In this document: piece after piece, positions 3,634 to 64,000 of the stretch
Layout: every line of letters begins with the position of its first letter
Numbering within the stretch: the stretch's first letter is position 1
Origin: a virus
Taxonomy: Duplodnaviria > Heunggongvirae > Uroviricota > Caudoviricetes
Strand: one strand, 5' to 3'
DNA: 64,000 nt
Virus record (IMG/VR): IMGVR_UViG_2925891887_000001
Notes under the pieces: generated by a model
Seen by the model: only the letters and a program-made list of their open reading frames with translations
The model's database searches: none
What the model was told of the DNA's origin: nothing
Translations under genes and position numbers: made by a program

Positions 3634-4332
3634 ATGGATTGTAGCAATAAAATGGATGTAAAAATCACGATTTTGCAGGTTGATGTTGCCAACCTTCGCC
3701 CGAATACCTGGAACACCAATTCGGTTGGTGCGCAGAATTTCGAAAAACTGAAAGGTTCTATCGAAAAATTGGGCTTTTTTAAGCCAATTTTGGCTCGTGA
3801 ACTTGAAGATGGATTTTTTGAAATCCTCGGCGGCGAACATCGCTGGCGTGCCGCTATTGAGCAAGGAATTTCAACGGTTCCGGTGCTTTCTGTGGGCAAA
3901 ATTAGCGATGTCGTAGCTAAACAGATGTCACTGGTGGACAACGAGCGATACGGTGAAGACGACCAAATCGCATTGCAACGCTTCATTGAAGAAATTCAGT
4001 CAGAGCTTGACTATCAACTGTCTGAAATCGCCCCGTATGACGACGAAATCTCGATGGTTTTAGCAAAAGAGGCGGCAATCGACCTTGAAGCACTGGAGGC
4101 GTTGTCTCGTGGTAGTGATGAGCCTGTCGATACCGACAAACGAGAGAAAACCGAACGTGTGGGTGCGGAACATCAGACCATGCGCTTCAAAGTAACTTTC
4201 GATGCGTCAGATCGTGTTGCAGAAACCATAAAAAACATCATTAAAGAGCAGGCTATTAACACCGGTAATGAAATGGAGAACGCTGGTGAGGCTCTGGTGT
4301 GGCTGGTCGACTACTACAAGGAGCGTATGTAA
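3634..4332 (+). CDS. ParB-like nuclease domain protein
   Basis: N-terminal ParB/Srx-like segment (ARELEDGFFEILGGEHRWRAAIEQGISTVPV); start could instead be the ATG near 3652. Confidence 0.55.
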   Translation: MDCSNKMDVKITILQVDVANLRPNTWNTNSVGAQNFEKLKGSIEKLGFFKPILARELEDGFFEILGGEHRWRAAIEQGISTVPVLSVGKISDVVAKQMSLVDNERYGEDDQIALQRFIEEIQSELDYQLSEIAPYDDEISMVLAKEAAIDLEALEALSRGSDEPVDTDKREKTERVGAEHQTMRFKVTFDASDRVAETIKNIIKEQAINTGNEMENAGEALVWLVDYYKERM

Positions 4333-7135: not shown

Positions 7136-7249
7136 TCGTAAGACATGCCAGACCTAATTAAACACCCCAGAAAACAAGTTGGTTAGCAGATGCAGTAAAC
7201 AAGTTGTTTTAGAGCGCATGGACGCGCTCTGTGTGTTTTAGAGGGATCT

Positions 7250-38805: not shown

Positions 38806-38932
38806 TTATTAAGCCCCCCCTATGTACCTATCATTAAACCTTTACACCGCAGCCGTAGGCATTTAGGCTATATCACATATAAGAAAACAAGTTGTTTCAG
38901 ACGATAATTATATACGCAAAGGGAACTCTCCA

Positions 38933-42640: not shown

Positions 42641-42683
42641 CTAATACTAGAAAACAATTTGTTTAAAAAACAAAGGAAAGCAC

Positions 42684-56214: not shown

Positions 56215-56312
56215 CCCCTCTTCTCCCTGCGCGAATGGCTTAGTTCCCTGTTCGCGCAGTGCTACATTAAACACACTAGTAAATAATTTGTTTTCATAAC
56301 AAAGGATTAGCC

Positions 56313-59754: not shown

Positions 59755-59958
59755 GTGCGTAAAGGATGTTTCGGCTCTCTTATCGCTGCTTCTGAAACTG
59801 GTAAGGCTTGTCTGGTGTGTCCAGACAAGCCCGATTGTCACCAATCAGCAAAAGAAGTTGCGATTTCGATGCATGGGAAGTTCGTAGGCTTCCCCAATGA
59901 CAAAATCAAAAAAACCAGAAAGGTAAAAACACATGAAGGCACTGATGGTTCGAACTGA
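59755..59958 (+). CDS. Hypothetical small Cys-rich protein
   Basis: 67-aa ORF (GTG start) between CobS-like and polymerase genes; weak support. Confidence 0.25.
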   Translation: MRKGCFGSLIAASETGKACLVCPDKPDCHQSAKEVAISMHGKFVGFPNDKIKKTRKVKTHEGTDGSN

Positions 59959-62296
59959 CTTCTCACTTGGGGAGTCGGCTCTAAAAGCAGAAAACGCGGT
60001 GAAGATTGCCAGAGAAGCTGGCTACACCGCTGTAATTTCAGCAGATAGCATGAATATTGCGAGCGTTATTCCACTACAACGTGCCGCTGGTGACGACATG
60101 GCGGTTATTTGTGGTGTGAAACTAAACATTGTTGATGATCCCACATACGAGCACCGGGCTAAACTTGCTAAAGAATCTATGAGATGTATGGAATCATTAG
60201 AGCGAGGACGTAACTACTCGTTTACCGCTCTAATTAAAAATGAGAAAGGATATCGCGACATCTGCGAACTAATGACGGCGGCCAACACACGAGAACAGTT
60301 CTACTTTGTACCGCGTCTCTCGCTCGAACAGTTGGTTTCTACATATGCCAAAGGCAACATCATCCTGCTTACTTCCGACATCGGTAGCGTGTTCCAACGC
60401 AACGATTTTGCAAAAATCATAAGCACACTGATTACAGCGGGTGGAAAAGACAACTTCTATAGTGTGGTTTATCCGCACCCTACCCCATTCTACGACCAGA
60501 TTAACGTCCGGGCGATGAAAGTCGCCAGCGCATTGAAAATAGAGCCAGTGGCGTTCTATCCCGCTTATTACGAATCGATCGACGATGCAGACATTAAAGA
60601 CATTGCGCACATGGTTACGAACAACATCAAAATCGACCAGCCGCATCGTCTGCGTATCCCCCACCAGCGAGATAACGCCGTCAATGGTCGCCGCCATCTC
60701 CTTGAGGCGCTTAAAGCCTTCTCCGTTCGCATGGATGTGCCGGTAACAGCTGCAATGGCCTCAACAACGCAGGATACCATTATCGATGCCTGCACATGGC
60801 GCTGGCATGAATTGCCGCCAGCACTGCCAAAGATGGCAGACGACGAGCCTGCAACGCTGATGAAACTGGCTGTTGCAGGGCTGCGTAAACGTCTTACCAC
60901 AAAAGAGTTTGGCTACACACCACCTGCTTCTGAGAACAGGGTTTATGTTGAGCGGCTAAAGTACGAAATGGACACGCTGACTCGCCTGGGATTCTGTGGT
61001 TACTTCCTGATGGTGCGCGATCTGATGAATCATAGTCGTGAAACTGGCATTCCCGTTGGGCCTGGTCGTGGTTCCTCTGCCGGTTCTCTGGTGGCGTGGT
61101 GCATAGGCATAACCAACGTCGACCCAATCCGTCACGGTCTTCTGTTTGAGCGTTTCATCAACCCTGAGCGTCTCGACTTGCCGGATGCGGACTTGGACTT
61201 CAGCCAGGCACGTCGCCATGAGGTGATCGAGTATCTGAATGAACGCTACGGCGAAGATTACGTTGCAGGCATTCCGAACTTCACCTACCTGGGCGCAGCC
61301 TCTGCACTACGTGATACCGCTCGTATTTATGGTGTGGAGTCCGCAGATATGGCGGTATCAAAAGAGCTGAAGAACGTCGAGGATGATAGCCTTCCATTGG
61401 AGGAGCTGCGCGAACAACTGGCAAGTCTCGACAAATACGCAACAAAATATCCTGATGCATTCAATGCAGCCTGCAAGTTACAAAGCCTTATGCGTGGCTT
61501 TGGTAGACATGCGGCAGGGATGATCGTAGCAGGTGTTCCTCTGACAGAACGTACACCGGTTGAACGCCGTGGTGACGCGCGTTGTATCGCATTTGACAAG
61601 CGTTACTGCGAGGCTATGGGCCTAATTAAGCTGGACGTGCTTGGCCTGGCAACTCTCGATTTGCTCGATAGTGCAAAACGCTACATAAAAGAGAACACAG
61701 GTGAAGATATCAATCTTGATGCCATTTCTCTTGAAGATCGCAAGGTGCTGGATGGTTTTGCTGCAGGGTATACACAGGGCGTATTCCAGCTTGAATCAGG
61801 CCCAATGCGCAAGCTGCTTAAAGATTTAGGTGGTGGAATTGAGCCAATGAGCTTTAAAACGGTCGTCGCTACAACTGCGCTCTTCCGACCTGGCCCGATT
61901 CAATCCGGCATGTTGGACGATTATGTGTCCGTGGCCAAAGGCTTCATGGCCCCACATTCCTTACACCCAATGCTGGACGACATCTCTCGCGACACAAACG
62001 GAGTTCTGATTTATCAGGAACAGATCATGGCTGCTACGCGAATCTTGGCGGGGTTCTCAATGGCGGAAGCAGACTCGGTCAGGAAAGCGATCGGGAAAAA
62101 AGATATGGAGAAAATGAAATCCATTGGCGGCGACTTCATTAAGCGAGCGGAGGAAGGCTGGGTGACAGTGTCACTGGATGATGGTTCTACGAGAAAAATC
62201 CATAAAGCAGCACGCCTACTTTGTGCTGATGGTGAGCGTCGCACTTATGCCGAAGCAATGGCAATAAATGCCGACATAACGAGCTTCGATATTTGA
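59933..62296 (+). CDS. dnaE: DNA polymerase III alpha (DnaE-type), N-terminal segment ending at interruption
   Basis: Degenerate PHP-like N-terminus, palm motifs GPGRGSSAGSLVAWCIGIT and PDADLDF, FRPGP fingers motif; about 43 codons before the stop stop resembling DnaE. Confidence 0.85.
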   Translation: MKALMVRTDFSLGESALKAENAVKIAREAGYTAVISADSMNIASVIPLQRAAGDDMAVICGVKLNIVDDPTYEHRAKLAKESMRCMESLERGRNYSFTALIKNEKGYRDICELMTAANTREQFYFVPRLSLEQLVSTYAKGNIILLTSDIGSVFQRNDFAKIISTLITAGGKDNFYSVVYPHPTPFYDQINVRAMKVASALKIEPVAFYPAYYESIDDADIKDIAHMVTNNIKIDQPHRLRIPHQRDNAVNGRRHLLEALKAFSVRMDVPVTAAMASTTQDTIIDACTWRWHELPPALPKMADDEPATLMKLAVAGLRKRLTTKEFGYTPPASENRVYVERLKYEMDTLTRLGFCGYFLMVRDLMNHSRETGIPVGPGRGSSAGSLVAWCIGITNVDPIRHGLLFERFINPERLDLPDADLDFSQARRHEVIEYLNERYGEDYVAGIPNFTYLGAASALRDTARIYGVESADMAVSKELKNVEDDSLPLEELREQLASLDKYATKYPDAFNAACKLQSLMRGFGRHAAGMIVAGVPLTERTPVERRGDARCIAFDKRYCEAMGLIKLDVLGLATLDLLDSAKRYIKENTGEDINLDAISLEDRKVLDGFAAGYTQGVFQLESGPMRKLLKDLGGGIEPMSFKTVVATTALFRPGPIQSGMLDDYVSVAKGFMAPHSLHPMLDDISRDTNGVLIYQEQIMAATRILAGFSMAEADSVRKAIGKKDMEKMKSIGGDFIKRAEEGWVTVSLDDGSTRKIHKAARLLCADGERRTYAEAMAINADITSFDI

Positions 62297-62344
62297 GAAT
62301 TAATTTATAAGATAAGAAAACAATTTGTTTAGTGAGTCTTAGAA

Positions 62345-63079
62345 ATGCCGAGTACGAAGTACAAAATCACAGAAGAATGGTTACGTCAGCGTTACATGGT
62401 TGACCTGATGAGAAAAGAAGACATTGCCGCCGAAGCTGGTTGCAGCAAGGCAAATATTGACCGCTTATTAGCCAAATGGGGGATCAGGCGCGGAAGCGCG
62501 CGGATCTCCGCTACCCCAGCCTGGAATCGTGGCAAAAACAAAAATAATGACGAACGTATGAAGCGTCTCTCCGAAGCCCGGACTGGCACTGGCAACCCTA
62601 TGTATGGGAAAACCTCGTGGAATGCCGGTCTGCGTGCTGATATCGATGAGCGAGTGGCCACCGTTTCGAAAAAGCTAACCGGCAGAACAATCCGCGCGGA
62701 GACGAAGGAAAAGCTGGCGGCTGCCAAACGCGGAAAGATCGGAGAAGAAGCGAACAACTACAAAGGTGGCATCATCGTAAAAACCAACGGCTACATGATG
62801 CAGCTGGTTGGTAACAATGGCGTTTCGCAATACGAATACGTTCATCGATTGATAGCGAAAGAACGTCTCGGTCGGGAGCTACGTGACGATGAACATGTCC
62901 ACCATATTAACCGCGATACGATAGATAACGCCCCTGGGAATCTTGTAGCACTTCCAGAAGACGCCCACATTCGCCTGCATAGTGAAATGCGTGAAGAGAT
63001 ATGGAGCTGGGAGCGCCAACGGAACTGGCTGGCCTCCAATGGGTATGAGTTCGTGAAGATTGATGAGGTGACTGCATGA
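62345..63079 (+). CDS. HNH homing endonuclease with NUMOD-like motifs
   Basis: HNH motif EHVHHINRDTIDNAPGNLVALPEDAHIRLH; NUMOD3-like repeats (GKTSWNAGL; TIRAETKEKLAAAKRG); sits inside the polymerase gene. Confidence 0.8.
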   Translation: MPSTKYKITEEWLRQRYMVDLMRKEDIAAEAGCSKANIDRLLAKWGIRRGSARISATPAWNRGKNKNNDERMKRLSEARTGTGNPMYGKTSWNAGLRADIDERVATVSKKLTGRTIRAETKEKLAAAKRGKIGEEANNYKGGIIVKTNGYMMQLVGNNGVSQYEYVHRLIAKERLGRELRDDEHVHHINRDTIDNAPGNLVALPEDAHIRLHSEMREEIWSWERQRNWLASNGYEFVKIDEVTA

Positions 63080-64000
63080 AAATTACCGGTGTTGTCGAAG
63101 AGAGCAATGGCCTGACGCACGAACGAGCCGAAGAAATCTGGAATATGTTTGAGAAATCCGGCGCGTATGCCTTCAACAAATCACACTCTGTTGCTTACTC
63201 CTTAATCAGTTATCAATCTATGTGGTTGAAAACTCATTATCCCGCAGAGTTTTTCGCTGCTGCTCTCACTATTCTTGGCGAAGATAAACACCAGGGGCTG
63301 GTTAAAGATGCGCTGACCTATGGCATTCGCGTATTGCCACCAGACGTTAACGTGTCATCTAACCGAATCGAGATCCGCACGCTTGAAGATGGCAGCCAGG
63401 TGCTGTATGCGCCCTTCTCTGCTGTGAAGGGGTGTTCTGAGAATGGCTGCCAAGCCATCATGAGAGCGCGAGAAAAAGTTGGCGGCAAATTCGAGTCACT
63501 GGCGCAATTCGAAGAAGCTGTCGAGAAACGTGCCTGTAATAGTCGAGTGCGCGAATCGCTGCAAAAAGTAGGGGCGTTTGCATCCATCGAGCCAGGCAGT
63601 CTGCCAGCAACTGATCCAGAGCGCCTACGCGACCAGGCTGAATTGATGGGAAACCTTGTCATAGACGCAGTTAAAGCCTCACGTCCGTTTGAGATGAACC
63701 CCAAACGTTCGGCTGAAATTAACGTACTCATGACGCGGATGGCGGCTGAAATGGGCTTAGGTGATGAACTAATCCGCCCCAGCATTGGTATTAAGCCGAA
63801 AATCATGATCATTCTGGACAATGCGAACGGCAATGATGCTCGAACCGGTTACTTTATGGAGAACGGATACGACGACTTTAAGGCCAAGCTATTGACGGCT
63901 GGAGATTTACGCATGGGCGATCTCTATGTCACAGGTGTTTGCAAGAAGGTTAAAGACAAAGAAAAAGACTACACCAAAGACGAGATCGGCCAGTTCACCG
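63076..64000 (+). CDS. dnaE: DNA polymerase III alpha (DnaE-type), C-terminal segment, partial (runs off window)
   Basis: ATG overlaps HNH stop (ATGA) with GAGGTG 6 nt upstream; frame open to window end; carries the conserved AYAFNKSHSVAYSLISYQSMWLKTHYPAEF block. Confidence 0.8.
   Translation, partial: MKITGVVEESNGLTHERAEEIWNMFEKSGAYAFNKSHSVAYSLISYQSMWLKTHYPAEFFAAALTILGEDKHQGLVKDALTYGIRVLPPDVNVSSNRIEIRTLEDGSQVLYAPFSAVKGCSENGCQAIMRAREKVGGKFESLAQFEEAVEKRACNSRVRESLQKVGAFASIEPGSLPATDPERLRDQAELMGNLVIDAVKASRPFEMNPKRSAEINVLMTRMAAEMGLGDELIRPSIGIKPKIMIILDNANGNDARTGYFMENGYDDFKAKLLTAGDLRMGDLYVTGVCKKVKDKEKDYTKDEIGQFT

Follow-up and report, generated by a model that had tools for sequence, protein, structure and literature searches.

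A probable two-cistron dnaE gene with a mobile HNH endonuclease gene in its spacer in an SSU5-like phage-plasmid of Escherichia coli

Introduction

How is a DnaE polymerase made from a gene whose reading frame stops in the middle, is followed by an endonuclease gene, and then starts again? This question is raised by the dnaE locus at the end of a 64,000-nucleotide (nt) stretch of DNA, IMG/VR record IMGVR_UViG_2925891887_000001, which is called the window here and is an E. coli SSU5-like phage-plasmid. A preliminary description of the window presented the locus as a polymerase gene interrupted by an HNH endonuclease gene. It left two options, two separately translated polypeptides or a self-splicing group I intron carrying the HNH open reading frame (ORF). 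Our comparison of the window with its relatives points with good confidence to a dnaE of two cistrons, translated separately and joined by neither RNA nor protein splicing, whose spacer houses a mobile, free-standing endonuclease gene.

Results

The dnaE gene is divided into two complete reading frames

The upstream cistron, dnaE-N (59933..62296, + strand), encodes 787 amino acids (aa) and ends with a TGA at 62294-62296. It matches the Pfam families PHP, DNA_pol3_alpha and DNA_pol3_finger, and it covers the PHP domain, the palm (DNA_pol3_alpha) and most of the fingers, including most of a lineage-specific insert of ~50 aa. A 48-nt intercistronic spacer follows (62297..62344, + strand), which is also the 5' region of the HNH gene and carries in-frame TGA, TAG and TGA codons. 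The free-standing HNH gene, HEG-A, occupies 62345..63079 (+ strand) and encodes 244 aa with Pfam HNH_3 and NUMOD3 matches. The downstream cistron, dnaE-C (63076..64000, + strand), begins with an ATG at 63076 in a frame different from that of dnaE-N and is truncated by the end of the window. Its full length, 389 aa, was read from the 100%-identical plasmid pSTEC388_1. In order, dnaE-C contains a head of MKIT, the rest of the fingers with the FNKSH motif, a helix-hairpin-helix domain (Pfam HHH_6) and a C-terminal domain resembling uracil-DNA glycosylase (UDG). A Shine-Dalgarno-like GAGGTG within the 3' end of the HNH gene (63065..63070, + strand) stands 5 nt 5' of the dnaE-C ATG, which overlaps the HNH stop codon as ATGA. 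The stop at 62296, the HNH ORF and the restart at 63076 had all been reported in the preliminary description, and the ORF map and the sequence confirmed each coordinate.

A sequencing error, which would restore one continuous ORF, was ruled out because the 1151-nt junction recurs with 100% identity in five complete E. coli plasmids, pSTEC388_1 among them. At 97-100% identity, the junction is present in 22 of the 106 matching plasmids of the E. coli complete-genome set, and it was found in Enterobacter and Cronobacter plasmids too. The 48-nt spacer itself is conserved in Enterobacter, Cronobacter, Buttiauxella and an IMG/VR contig.

The break lies in a fingers insert shared with intact relatives

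Phages Cyrano, SSU5, CMS-2020a and PhiR41_1 and plasmid p4_0.2 encode a single continuous DnaE of 1168-1172 aa, and intact forms span 1168-1178 aa across many clusters. Both flanks of the break are homologous to intact DnaE by alignment, and comparison with these genes, as had been suggested, maps the insertion: by length and alignment, homology to the 1168-aa form stops at 62281 and restarts at 63088. The inserted 806 nt consist of a four-codon tail, SFDI, with the TGA stop (62282..62296, + strand; from length and alignment against Cyrano and CMS-2020a), the spacer, the HNH ORF and the MKIT head. Thus, compared with the 1168-aa form, the break adds only four (SFDI) and four (MKIT) DnaE residues, and longer intact forms do hold residues at these positions.

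Two distances in the preliminary description needed revision. The stop had been placed about 43 codons after the last recognisable DnaE residues, and the restart about 10 codons before AYAFNKSH; the stop is 45 codons past ...AEEG and the restart is 29 codons before the motif. Since 41 of the 45 codons after AEEG are homologous to intact relatives, they are not non-DnaE read-through. They belong to the ~50-aa fingers insertion, which intact relatives share and whose N-side part, a beta-rich segment (WVTVSL...NADIT), lies at 62156..62281 (+ strand). The insertion is placed between residues 788 and 789 of Thermus aquaticus Pol III alpha. This module is without a counterpart in solved Pol III alpha structures, and distant relatives of 1114-1130 aa do not have it. 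The break falls in the least conserved 30-aa stretch of the protein.

AlphaFold2 models were made of two intact relatives, P0055 (1168 aa) and P0142 (1178 aa), with a mean predicted local distance difference test score (pLDDT) of about 86 and a predicted template modeling score (pTM) of 0.74. The insertion is ordered in both models (pLDDT about 78-92) and is predicted to form four short strands, a helix and a final strand that runs into the helix before FNKSH. The break corresponds in P0142 to a turn (residues 786-787) that links a short strand to strand 788-793. The models suggest that the head strand of dnaE-C could pair with the tail of dnaE-N, completing the sheet and helping the halves to dock.

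RNA and protein splicing are not supported

The intron option proposes that a self-splicing group I intron containing the HNH ORF restores a continuous dnaE mRNA. HNH ORFs are frequent in phage group I introns, and excision of 62282-63087 would give an in-frame DnaE of Cyrano/CMS-2020a length. However, an Rfam scan of 61500-64000 at E<=10 gave no group I or group II match, only chance matches to snoRNAs and miRNAs. The non-coding part of the 806-nt insert is just 48 nt, and the boundary bases do not follow the group I splice-site pattern: exon 1 ends with G rather than U (62281), and the insert ends with C rather than G (63087). The stop and restart are also kept where the spacer is 65-84 nt, in which a self-splicing intron is impossible yet both ORFs (787 + 389 aa) are intact, and where the gap holds an unrelated endonuclease gene sharing no non-coding sequence. 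Finally, dnaE-C has its own conserved ribosome-binding site (RBS) and ATG. We regard the intron as very improbable.

The preliminary description was correct to exclude a continuous intein on account of the stops and the frame change. A split intein that joins the halves by protein trans-splicing, as in the cyanobacterial or 'fractured' DnaE proteins, is a separate proposal. DnaE is a classic host of split inteins, and an endonuclease gene separates the halves at known fractured DnaE loci (PMC2677866). At this locus, though, only 4 + 4 residues are extra relative to the short intact relatives, which leaves no room for a split intein, and the longer intact forms are homologous even there. Pfam found Pol III domains but no intein/Hint domain on either dnaE half. 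The residue following the MKIT head is Gly, where an intein would call for a +1 nucleophile (Cys, Ser or Thr), and the flanking ~50 aa are part of the mature intact proteins. Among the explanations considered, a split intein has the smallest chance of being right.

Ribosomal bypass between matching codons (ATT...ATT here; GTT...GTT in the alleles with the NUMOD4-type endonuclease gene described below) was also considered. It was rejected because the gap is ~790 nt, a translated ORF lies inside it, and dnaE-C has its own RBS and ATG.

Both halves are maintained by selection

Nei-Gojobori estimates were made between split alleles. The ratio of nonsynonymous to synonymous substitution (dN/dS) was 0.03-0.05 for dnaE-N and 0.015-0.023 for dnaE-C, each at a dS of about 0.7-1.7. 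For the HNH gene it was about 0.2 at a dS of 0.15-0.38, and this lower dS suggests that the HNH gene is younger than the backbones carrying it. All three ORFs are under purifying selection, which is strong for both dnaE halves. Both dnaE pieces are complete, evolutionarily maintained ORFs with their own stop and start signals, and the dnaE-C ATG and RBS-like sequence are conserved in every lineage. Of the two options left by the preliminary description, separate translation is therefore the one supported, by purifying selection on both halves, by the conserved dnaE-C RBS and ATG, and by the split alleles without an endonuclease gene. The selection estimates suggest that the two halves are functional, and dnaE-N and dnaE-C would be expected to reassemble into a polymerase.

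Another possible explanation is that dnaE is simply broken and decaying into a pseudogene, and that the element uses the host polymerase. Consistent with this, one piece carries an incomplete or frameshift flag from the NCBI pipeline, dnaE-N in pSTEC388_1 and dnaE-C in several RefSeq records, and defective derivatives with dnaE deletions exist (P0136, P0149 and P0166). Against this, both ORFs are intact in hundreds of plasmids from at least five genera, dN/dS is 0.015-0.05 at saturating dS, and no lineage has lost the start codon or RBS of dnaE-C. Loss of function is thus improbable, though less so than either form of splicing.

A scan for sigma-70 promoters and terminators found no + strand consensus promoter or terminator between the cistrons, which fits a single transcript. 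Translation of dnaE-C is probably coupled to that of the HNH gene, whose 3' end supplies the RBS and the ATGA overlap. An RNA hairpin is predicted at 62283-62361, where the end of dnaE-N and the spacer pair with the region at or just before the HNH start. This hairpin is marginal (z=-2.0; 10 of 200 shuffled sequences fold equally well), and it could possibly sequester the RBS of the HNH gene, as described for mobE of Aeromonas phage Aeh1.

The split exists without an endonuclease gene

To describe the locus as a polymerase gene interrupted by an HNH gene is only partly accurate. The split and its HNH gene are real, but the same split exists without an endonuclease gene. The preliminary description had stated that a stop and restart in relatives lacking the endonuclease gene would refute its interpretation, and this arrangement was found in close relatives and in three deep lineages.

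Among the close relatives, Buttiauxella plasmid p1WJP83 has a 69-nt spacer with no HNH gene and with the identical stop and restart. Traces of the HNH gene remain in this spacer: its start codon, as ATG-TCA-TGA, and its final ~18 nt. In the IMG/VR record UViG_3300011827_000034, which likewise has no endonuclease gene at the break, the spacer is 65 nt long and its endpoints differ from those in Buttiauxella. Both retain AAGGTG as the RBS-like sequence of dnaE-C. A pattern scan for empty spacers gave no match in genome contigs, and its one match in viral contigs was this IMG/VR record. In the three deep lineages, dnaE-N is followed by a spacer of 70, 84 or 72 nt (L016 5874-5943; L017 5871-5954; L019 5859-5930) and by a dnaE-C starting MK[IV], with no endonuclease gene. 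Each of these spacers holds a strong stem-loop, which may be an attenuator, a processing site or a coupling element; the one in L016 has a 15-bp stem (z=-2.9).

Because a 287-aa query had retrieved mainly fragments and not one full-length protein, homologues were searched for with a full-length intact DnaE. This search gave N pieces from at least ten diverged lineages, with identity as low as 60%. They are 784-790 aa long, the C pieces are 386-389 aa with the same break, and all N pieces end 3-7 residues past the conserved 'ADI'. Split forms do not group apart from intact ones in a tree built on the first 720 residues, but are interleaved with them. Klebsiella phage pJN2-26 had been expected to carry a split gene, but its DnaE was found to be intact. 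Since the stop and restart occur without an endonuclease gene, the HNH gene appears to be an optional, mobile tenant of the spacer, and these findings indicate that the split is a lineage-wide two-cistron architecture.

In the intact SSU5 DnaE (L002, around 3850-3952), the very position at which split alleles begin their C piece is occupied by a Met (..KLP-MAAVRVTG..), and the residues flanking it resemble the split allele of Enterobacter kobei. This is compatible with the SSU5 intact allele being a re-fusion of a split one.

DnaE fragments of other lengths were also seen. Acinetobacter baumannii contigs of ~110 kb (P0010 and P0016) encode 466-aa fragments, and Enterobacter hormaechei contigs (P0150 and P0151) encode 706-aa N-terminal fragments, a hint of further breaks elsewhere in phage-plasmid dnaE.

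Two unrelated endonuclease genes occupy the same break

The HNH protein of the window has a helix-turn-helix (HTH)-like region and NUMOD3 (Pfam E=2.7e-6) in its N-terminal part and HNH_3 in its C-terminal part (residues 165-205, E=1e-7, above the curated cut-off). It also matches HNH families of PHROG, including PHROG 21964. Its gene is free-standing, a separate ORF between genes, with no intron found at the locus and no intein domain in the flanking ORFs. Among 5.8 billion proteins, it fell into only five clusters, all at 88% identity or more, and its phage relatives are distant; the protein therefore appears to be dedicated to the dnaE site. Occurrence at this one locus is sporadic, with the gene present in 22 of the 106 E. 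coli plasmids and missing from near-identical backbones and from close split alleles.

In the PLSDB database, HEG-A is at the break in 24 plasmids, while a NUMOD4-HNH gene is at the same break in 243 plasmids, mostly from Klebsiella and Enterobacter and also from E. albertii. The NUMOD4-type alleles have the same 787 + 389 aa break, with DFGV as the equivalent of the SFDI tail. Their NUMOD4-HNH-HTH gene encodes 233 aa and has a TTG start overlapping the dnaE-N stop. It shares 28% identity with the window HNH protein over the 57-aa HNH core only, and has the opposite domain order. The NUMOD4-HNH gene of E. albertii plasmid p3RM15116 (L009 4187-4887) is frameshifted into two ORFs, whereas sister plasmids have it intact; judged from its sequence, this copy looks like an endonuclease gene caught decaying.

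The HNH gene lies in a mosaic tract

Outside about 61950-63290, the window dnaE is essentially identical to the intact gene of CMS-2020a/p4_0.2, and 215 of the 233 mismatches to intact CMS-2020a fall inside these limits. Inside, identity to the split alleles of Enterobacter, Buttiauxella and Cronobacter is 95-98%, compared with 75-88% elsewhere. The distribution of mismatches against intact and split alleles thus delimits a recombination (co-conversion) tract of about 61950..63290 that includes the HNH gene. The same cassette is present in three other E. coli plasmids with different backbones, breakpoints and upstream and downstream partners, and in a Klebsiella-type backbone (P0141 and P0143). 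In all, the tract accompanies the HNH gene in at least four E. coli backbones and one Klebsiella-type backbone. The NUMOD4 cassette of E. albertii sits in an E. coli-type backbone, yet it is 99% identical to Klebsiella copies.

The mosaic tract has the appearance of the co-conversion signature expected of homing (PMC2988022). In the backbone of the window, the split state most likely arrived together with the HNH cassette by recombination. The proposed mechanism is as follows. The HNH enzyme would most likely cut the endonuclease-less dnaE alleles of co-resident relatives, both its activity and its target being predictions. Repair would then copy the HNH gene together with about 350 nt upstream and 100-200 nt downstream. 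Through homing of this kind, an intact dnaE would become two-piece in a single step, because the stop and the restart lie inside the copied tract. The endonuclease would be a selfish element, dispensable for polymerase function.

Three points weigh against a two-cistron DnaE whose spacer is visited by a homing endonuclease gene. The mosaic shows recombination, which need not have been initiated by the endonuclease, and replacement in the other direction is possible in principle. NCBI annotation treats one piece as a pseudogene, dnaE-C in many RefSeq records and dnaE-N in pSTEC388_1. Also, the AlphaFold2 models describe the intact relatives rather than a two-chain enzyme.

A recurring palindromic motif and the origin of the split

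The 48-nt spacer contains a copy of a palindromic intergenic motif, AGAAAACAAnTTGTTTAG (62315..62332), with the core AAACA-N3-TGTTT. A motif scan found other window copies at 7169-7186, 7194-7211, 38882-38899, 42649-42666 and 56279-56296. There are four exact core matches in the window, compared with 0.18 expected, and seven loose matches, compared with 0.38 expected. The copies lie 15-65 nt 5' of + strand gene starts and precede a ParA-like gene, a DnaB-like helicase gene, a CobT-like gene, one unknown gene and the HNH gene; CobT-like and AAA_5 genes are located upstream of dnaE. Copies are also present in the endonuclease-less dnaE spacers of L016 and L017. From these positions, the motif is probably an operator or a promoter-associated element of replication and partition genes.

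This motif bears on whether the HNH gene made the split. The insertion itself could have brought the stop and the start, in which case the empty splits would be later deletions and the NUMOD4-HNH gene a replacement. The Buttiauxella spacer, with the HNH start codon and the last ~18 nt of the gene still in place, looks like a deletion, and so does the IMG/VR spacer, which has the same HNH 3' end and different endpoints. The split alleles of both endonuclease types share a homologous tail, xFxx-stop, and head, MKIx, and a published model for fractured genes has the invader supplying the stop and the start (PMC2677866). However, the three deep lineages (60-78% identity) are split by unrelated 70-84 nt spacers without any endonuclease remnant. 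In addition, the AGAAAACAAnTTGTTTAG motif in the 48 nt before the HNH gene recurs in endonuclease-less spacers, and the start region GGGAAAACACATG is common to the NUMOD4-type allele and the L016 spacer, which has no endonuclease gene. This shared motif and start region fit endonuclease genes landing in a pre-existing spacer, as has likewise been proposed for gene 43 of phages 25 and 44RR (PMC2988022). That the HNH gene created the split is a serious alternative, although the less likely one.

A fuller scenario can be offered tentatively, at somewhat less than even odds. The one-chain and two-chain forms of the replicase would be an old balanced polymorphism, with the break at a hairpin turn of the fingers module. 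The motif-bearing, regulated spacer would serve as a landing pad for successive unrelated HNH genes, and homing would drive the change from intact to two-piece dnaE across genera. If so, this would be the first natural two-subunit DnaE that is free of inteins.

Deletion derivatives with RecA-like fusions

DnaE variants containing RecA-like sequence (P0136, P0149 and P0166) were considered as a third type of occupant of the break. They were rejected as such because they are deletion chimeras with junctions at other dnaE positions. In these variants, encoded by some E. coli plasmids (P0136 at L022 4001-7228), an N part of dnaE is fused to a RecA-like C part that carries an intein end (...SHN|T). 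They come from phage-plasmid deletion derivatives and have three different dnaE junction positions. In L022, a restriction-modification module follows the chimera. The intein-containing RecA-like gene was looked for in the window and is absent from it.

Discussion

The arrangement found here is of a known kind but is apparently undescribed for the polymerase or for the widespread SSU5-like plasmid family, and full-text searches of the literature gave no description of a split dnaE in SSU5-like elements. Cyanobacteria reportedly have a split DnaE with a naturally split DnaE intein (Wu, Hu & Liu 1998). Their DnaE is likewise in two pieces of similar proportions, and it is broken at ...Y|CFNKSH, about 30 codons downstream of the phage-plasmid break. 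There, the pieces are encoded at separate loci and joined by protein trans-splicing, whereas here they are adjacent, have no intein and presumably associate non-covalently.

The closest parallel in arrangement is the 'genes-in-pieces' locus nrdA-a / mobE / nrdA-b of Aeromonas phage Aeh1 (Friedrich et al. 2007, as reviewed in PMC2988022), where the divided gene is essential and, like dnaE, replication-related. In both cases, a free-standing HNH gene lies between separately translated halves that are contiguous in relatives, start and stop overlaps suggest translational coupling, and a hairpin may sequester an RBS. The present case differs in that the host gene is a C-family (DnaE) polymerase on a phage-plasmid and the break is in a lineage-specific insert module rather than in the conserved core. 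In addition, many relatives are split without any endonuclease gene, and the activity of the split enzyme is a prediction. The T4 genes 39/60/mobA are another case of genes-in-pieces that the dnaE locus resembles.

A two-cistron replicative polymerase is also known from gene 43 (PolB) of the T4-related phages 25 (seg43) and 44RR (IC-UTS) (Petrov et al. 2006, as reviewed in PMC2988022). At that locus, too, the gap holds an endonuclease gene in one relative but only an untranslated spacer in another, and the same question arises of whether the endonuclease caused the split or invaded an existing one. Apart from the polymerase family (C here, B there), the SSU5-like elements differ in that a single plasmid family has intact alleles, at least five different empty spacers and two HNH genes unrelated to each other, with direct mosaic evidence for a cassette moving between backbones. 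The 'fractured genes', which include three DnaE loci (Dassa et al. 2009, PMC2677866), resemble the phage-plasmid locus in that the halves keep their order and lie next to each other on either side of a free-standing endonuclease gene, the 3' end of the endonuclease gene overlaps the start of the downstream half, and a version of the locus without the endonuclease gene has been observed. In the fractured genes, split inteins ligate the halves and the endonuclease is GIY-YIG or Vsr-like, in contrast to the HNH gene and the lack of intein sequence here.

The two-piece form also affects annotation. In databases, the C piece is named 'uracil-DNA glycosylase' or 'helix-hairpin-helix domain-containing protein', or is called a pseudogene. 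The C-terminal ~120 aa of DnaE (window 63076-64000; L008 2762-3931) have a weak match to the UDG superfamily in Pfam (E=0.005, below the curated cut-off), which accounts for the first of these names in NCBI records. This UDG-like end replaces the bacterial OB/tau-binding end. A two-piece dnaE is present in hundreds to thousands of sequenced enterobacterial phage-plasmids, many of them from clinical isolates. Because one piece, usually the C half, is mislabelled, pangenome and typing studies score the replication module wrongly.

This one family provides a natural series of dnaE alleles that are intact, split and empty, or split with either of two endonuclease genes. The series could be used to test how homing endonucleases create or exploit split essential genes, whether a gene architecture can be spread by homing, and how a C-family polymerase copes with a chain break in the fingers. 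The break site and its small insert module could also guide the design of engineered split polymerases.

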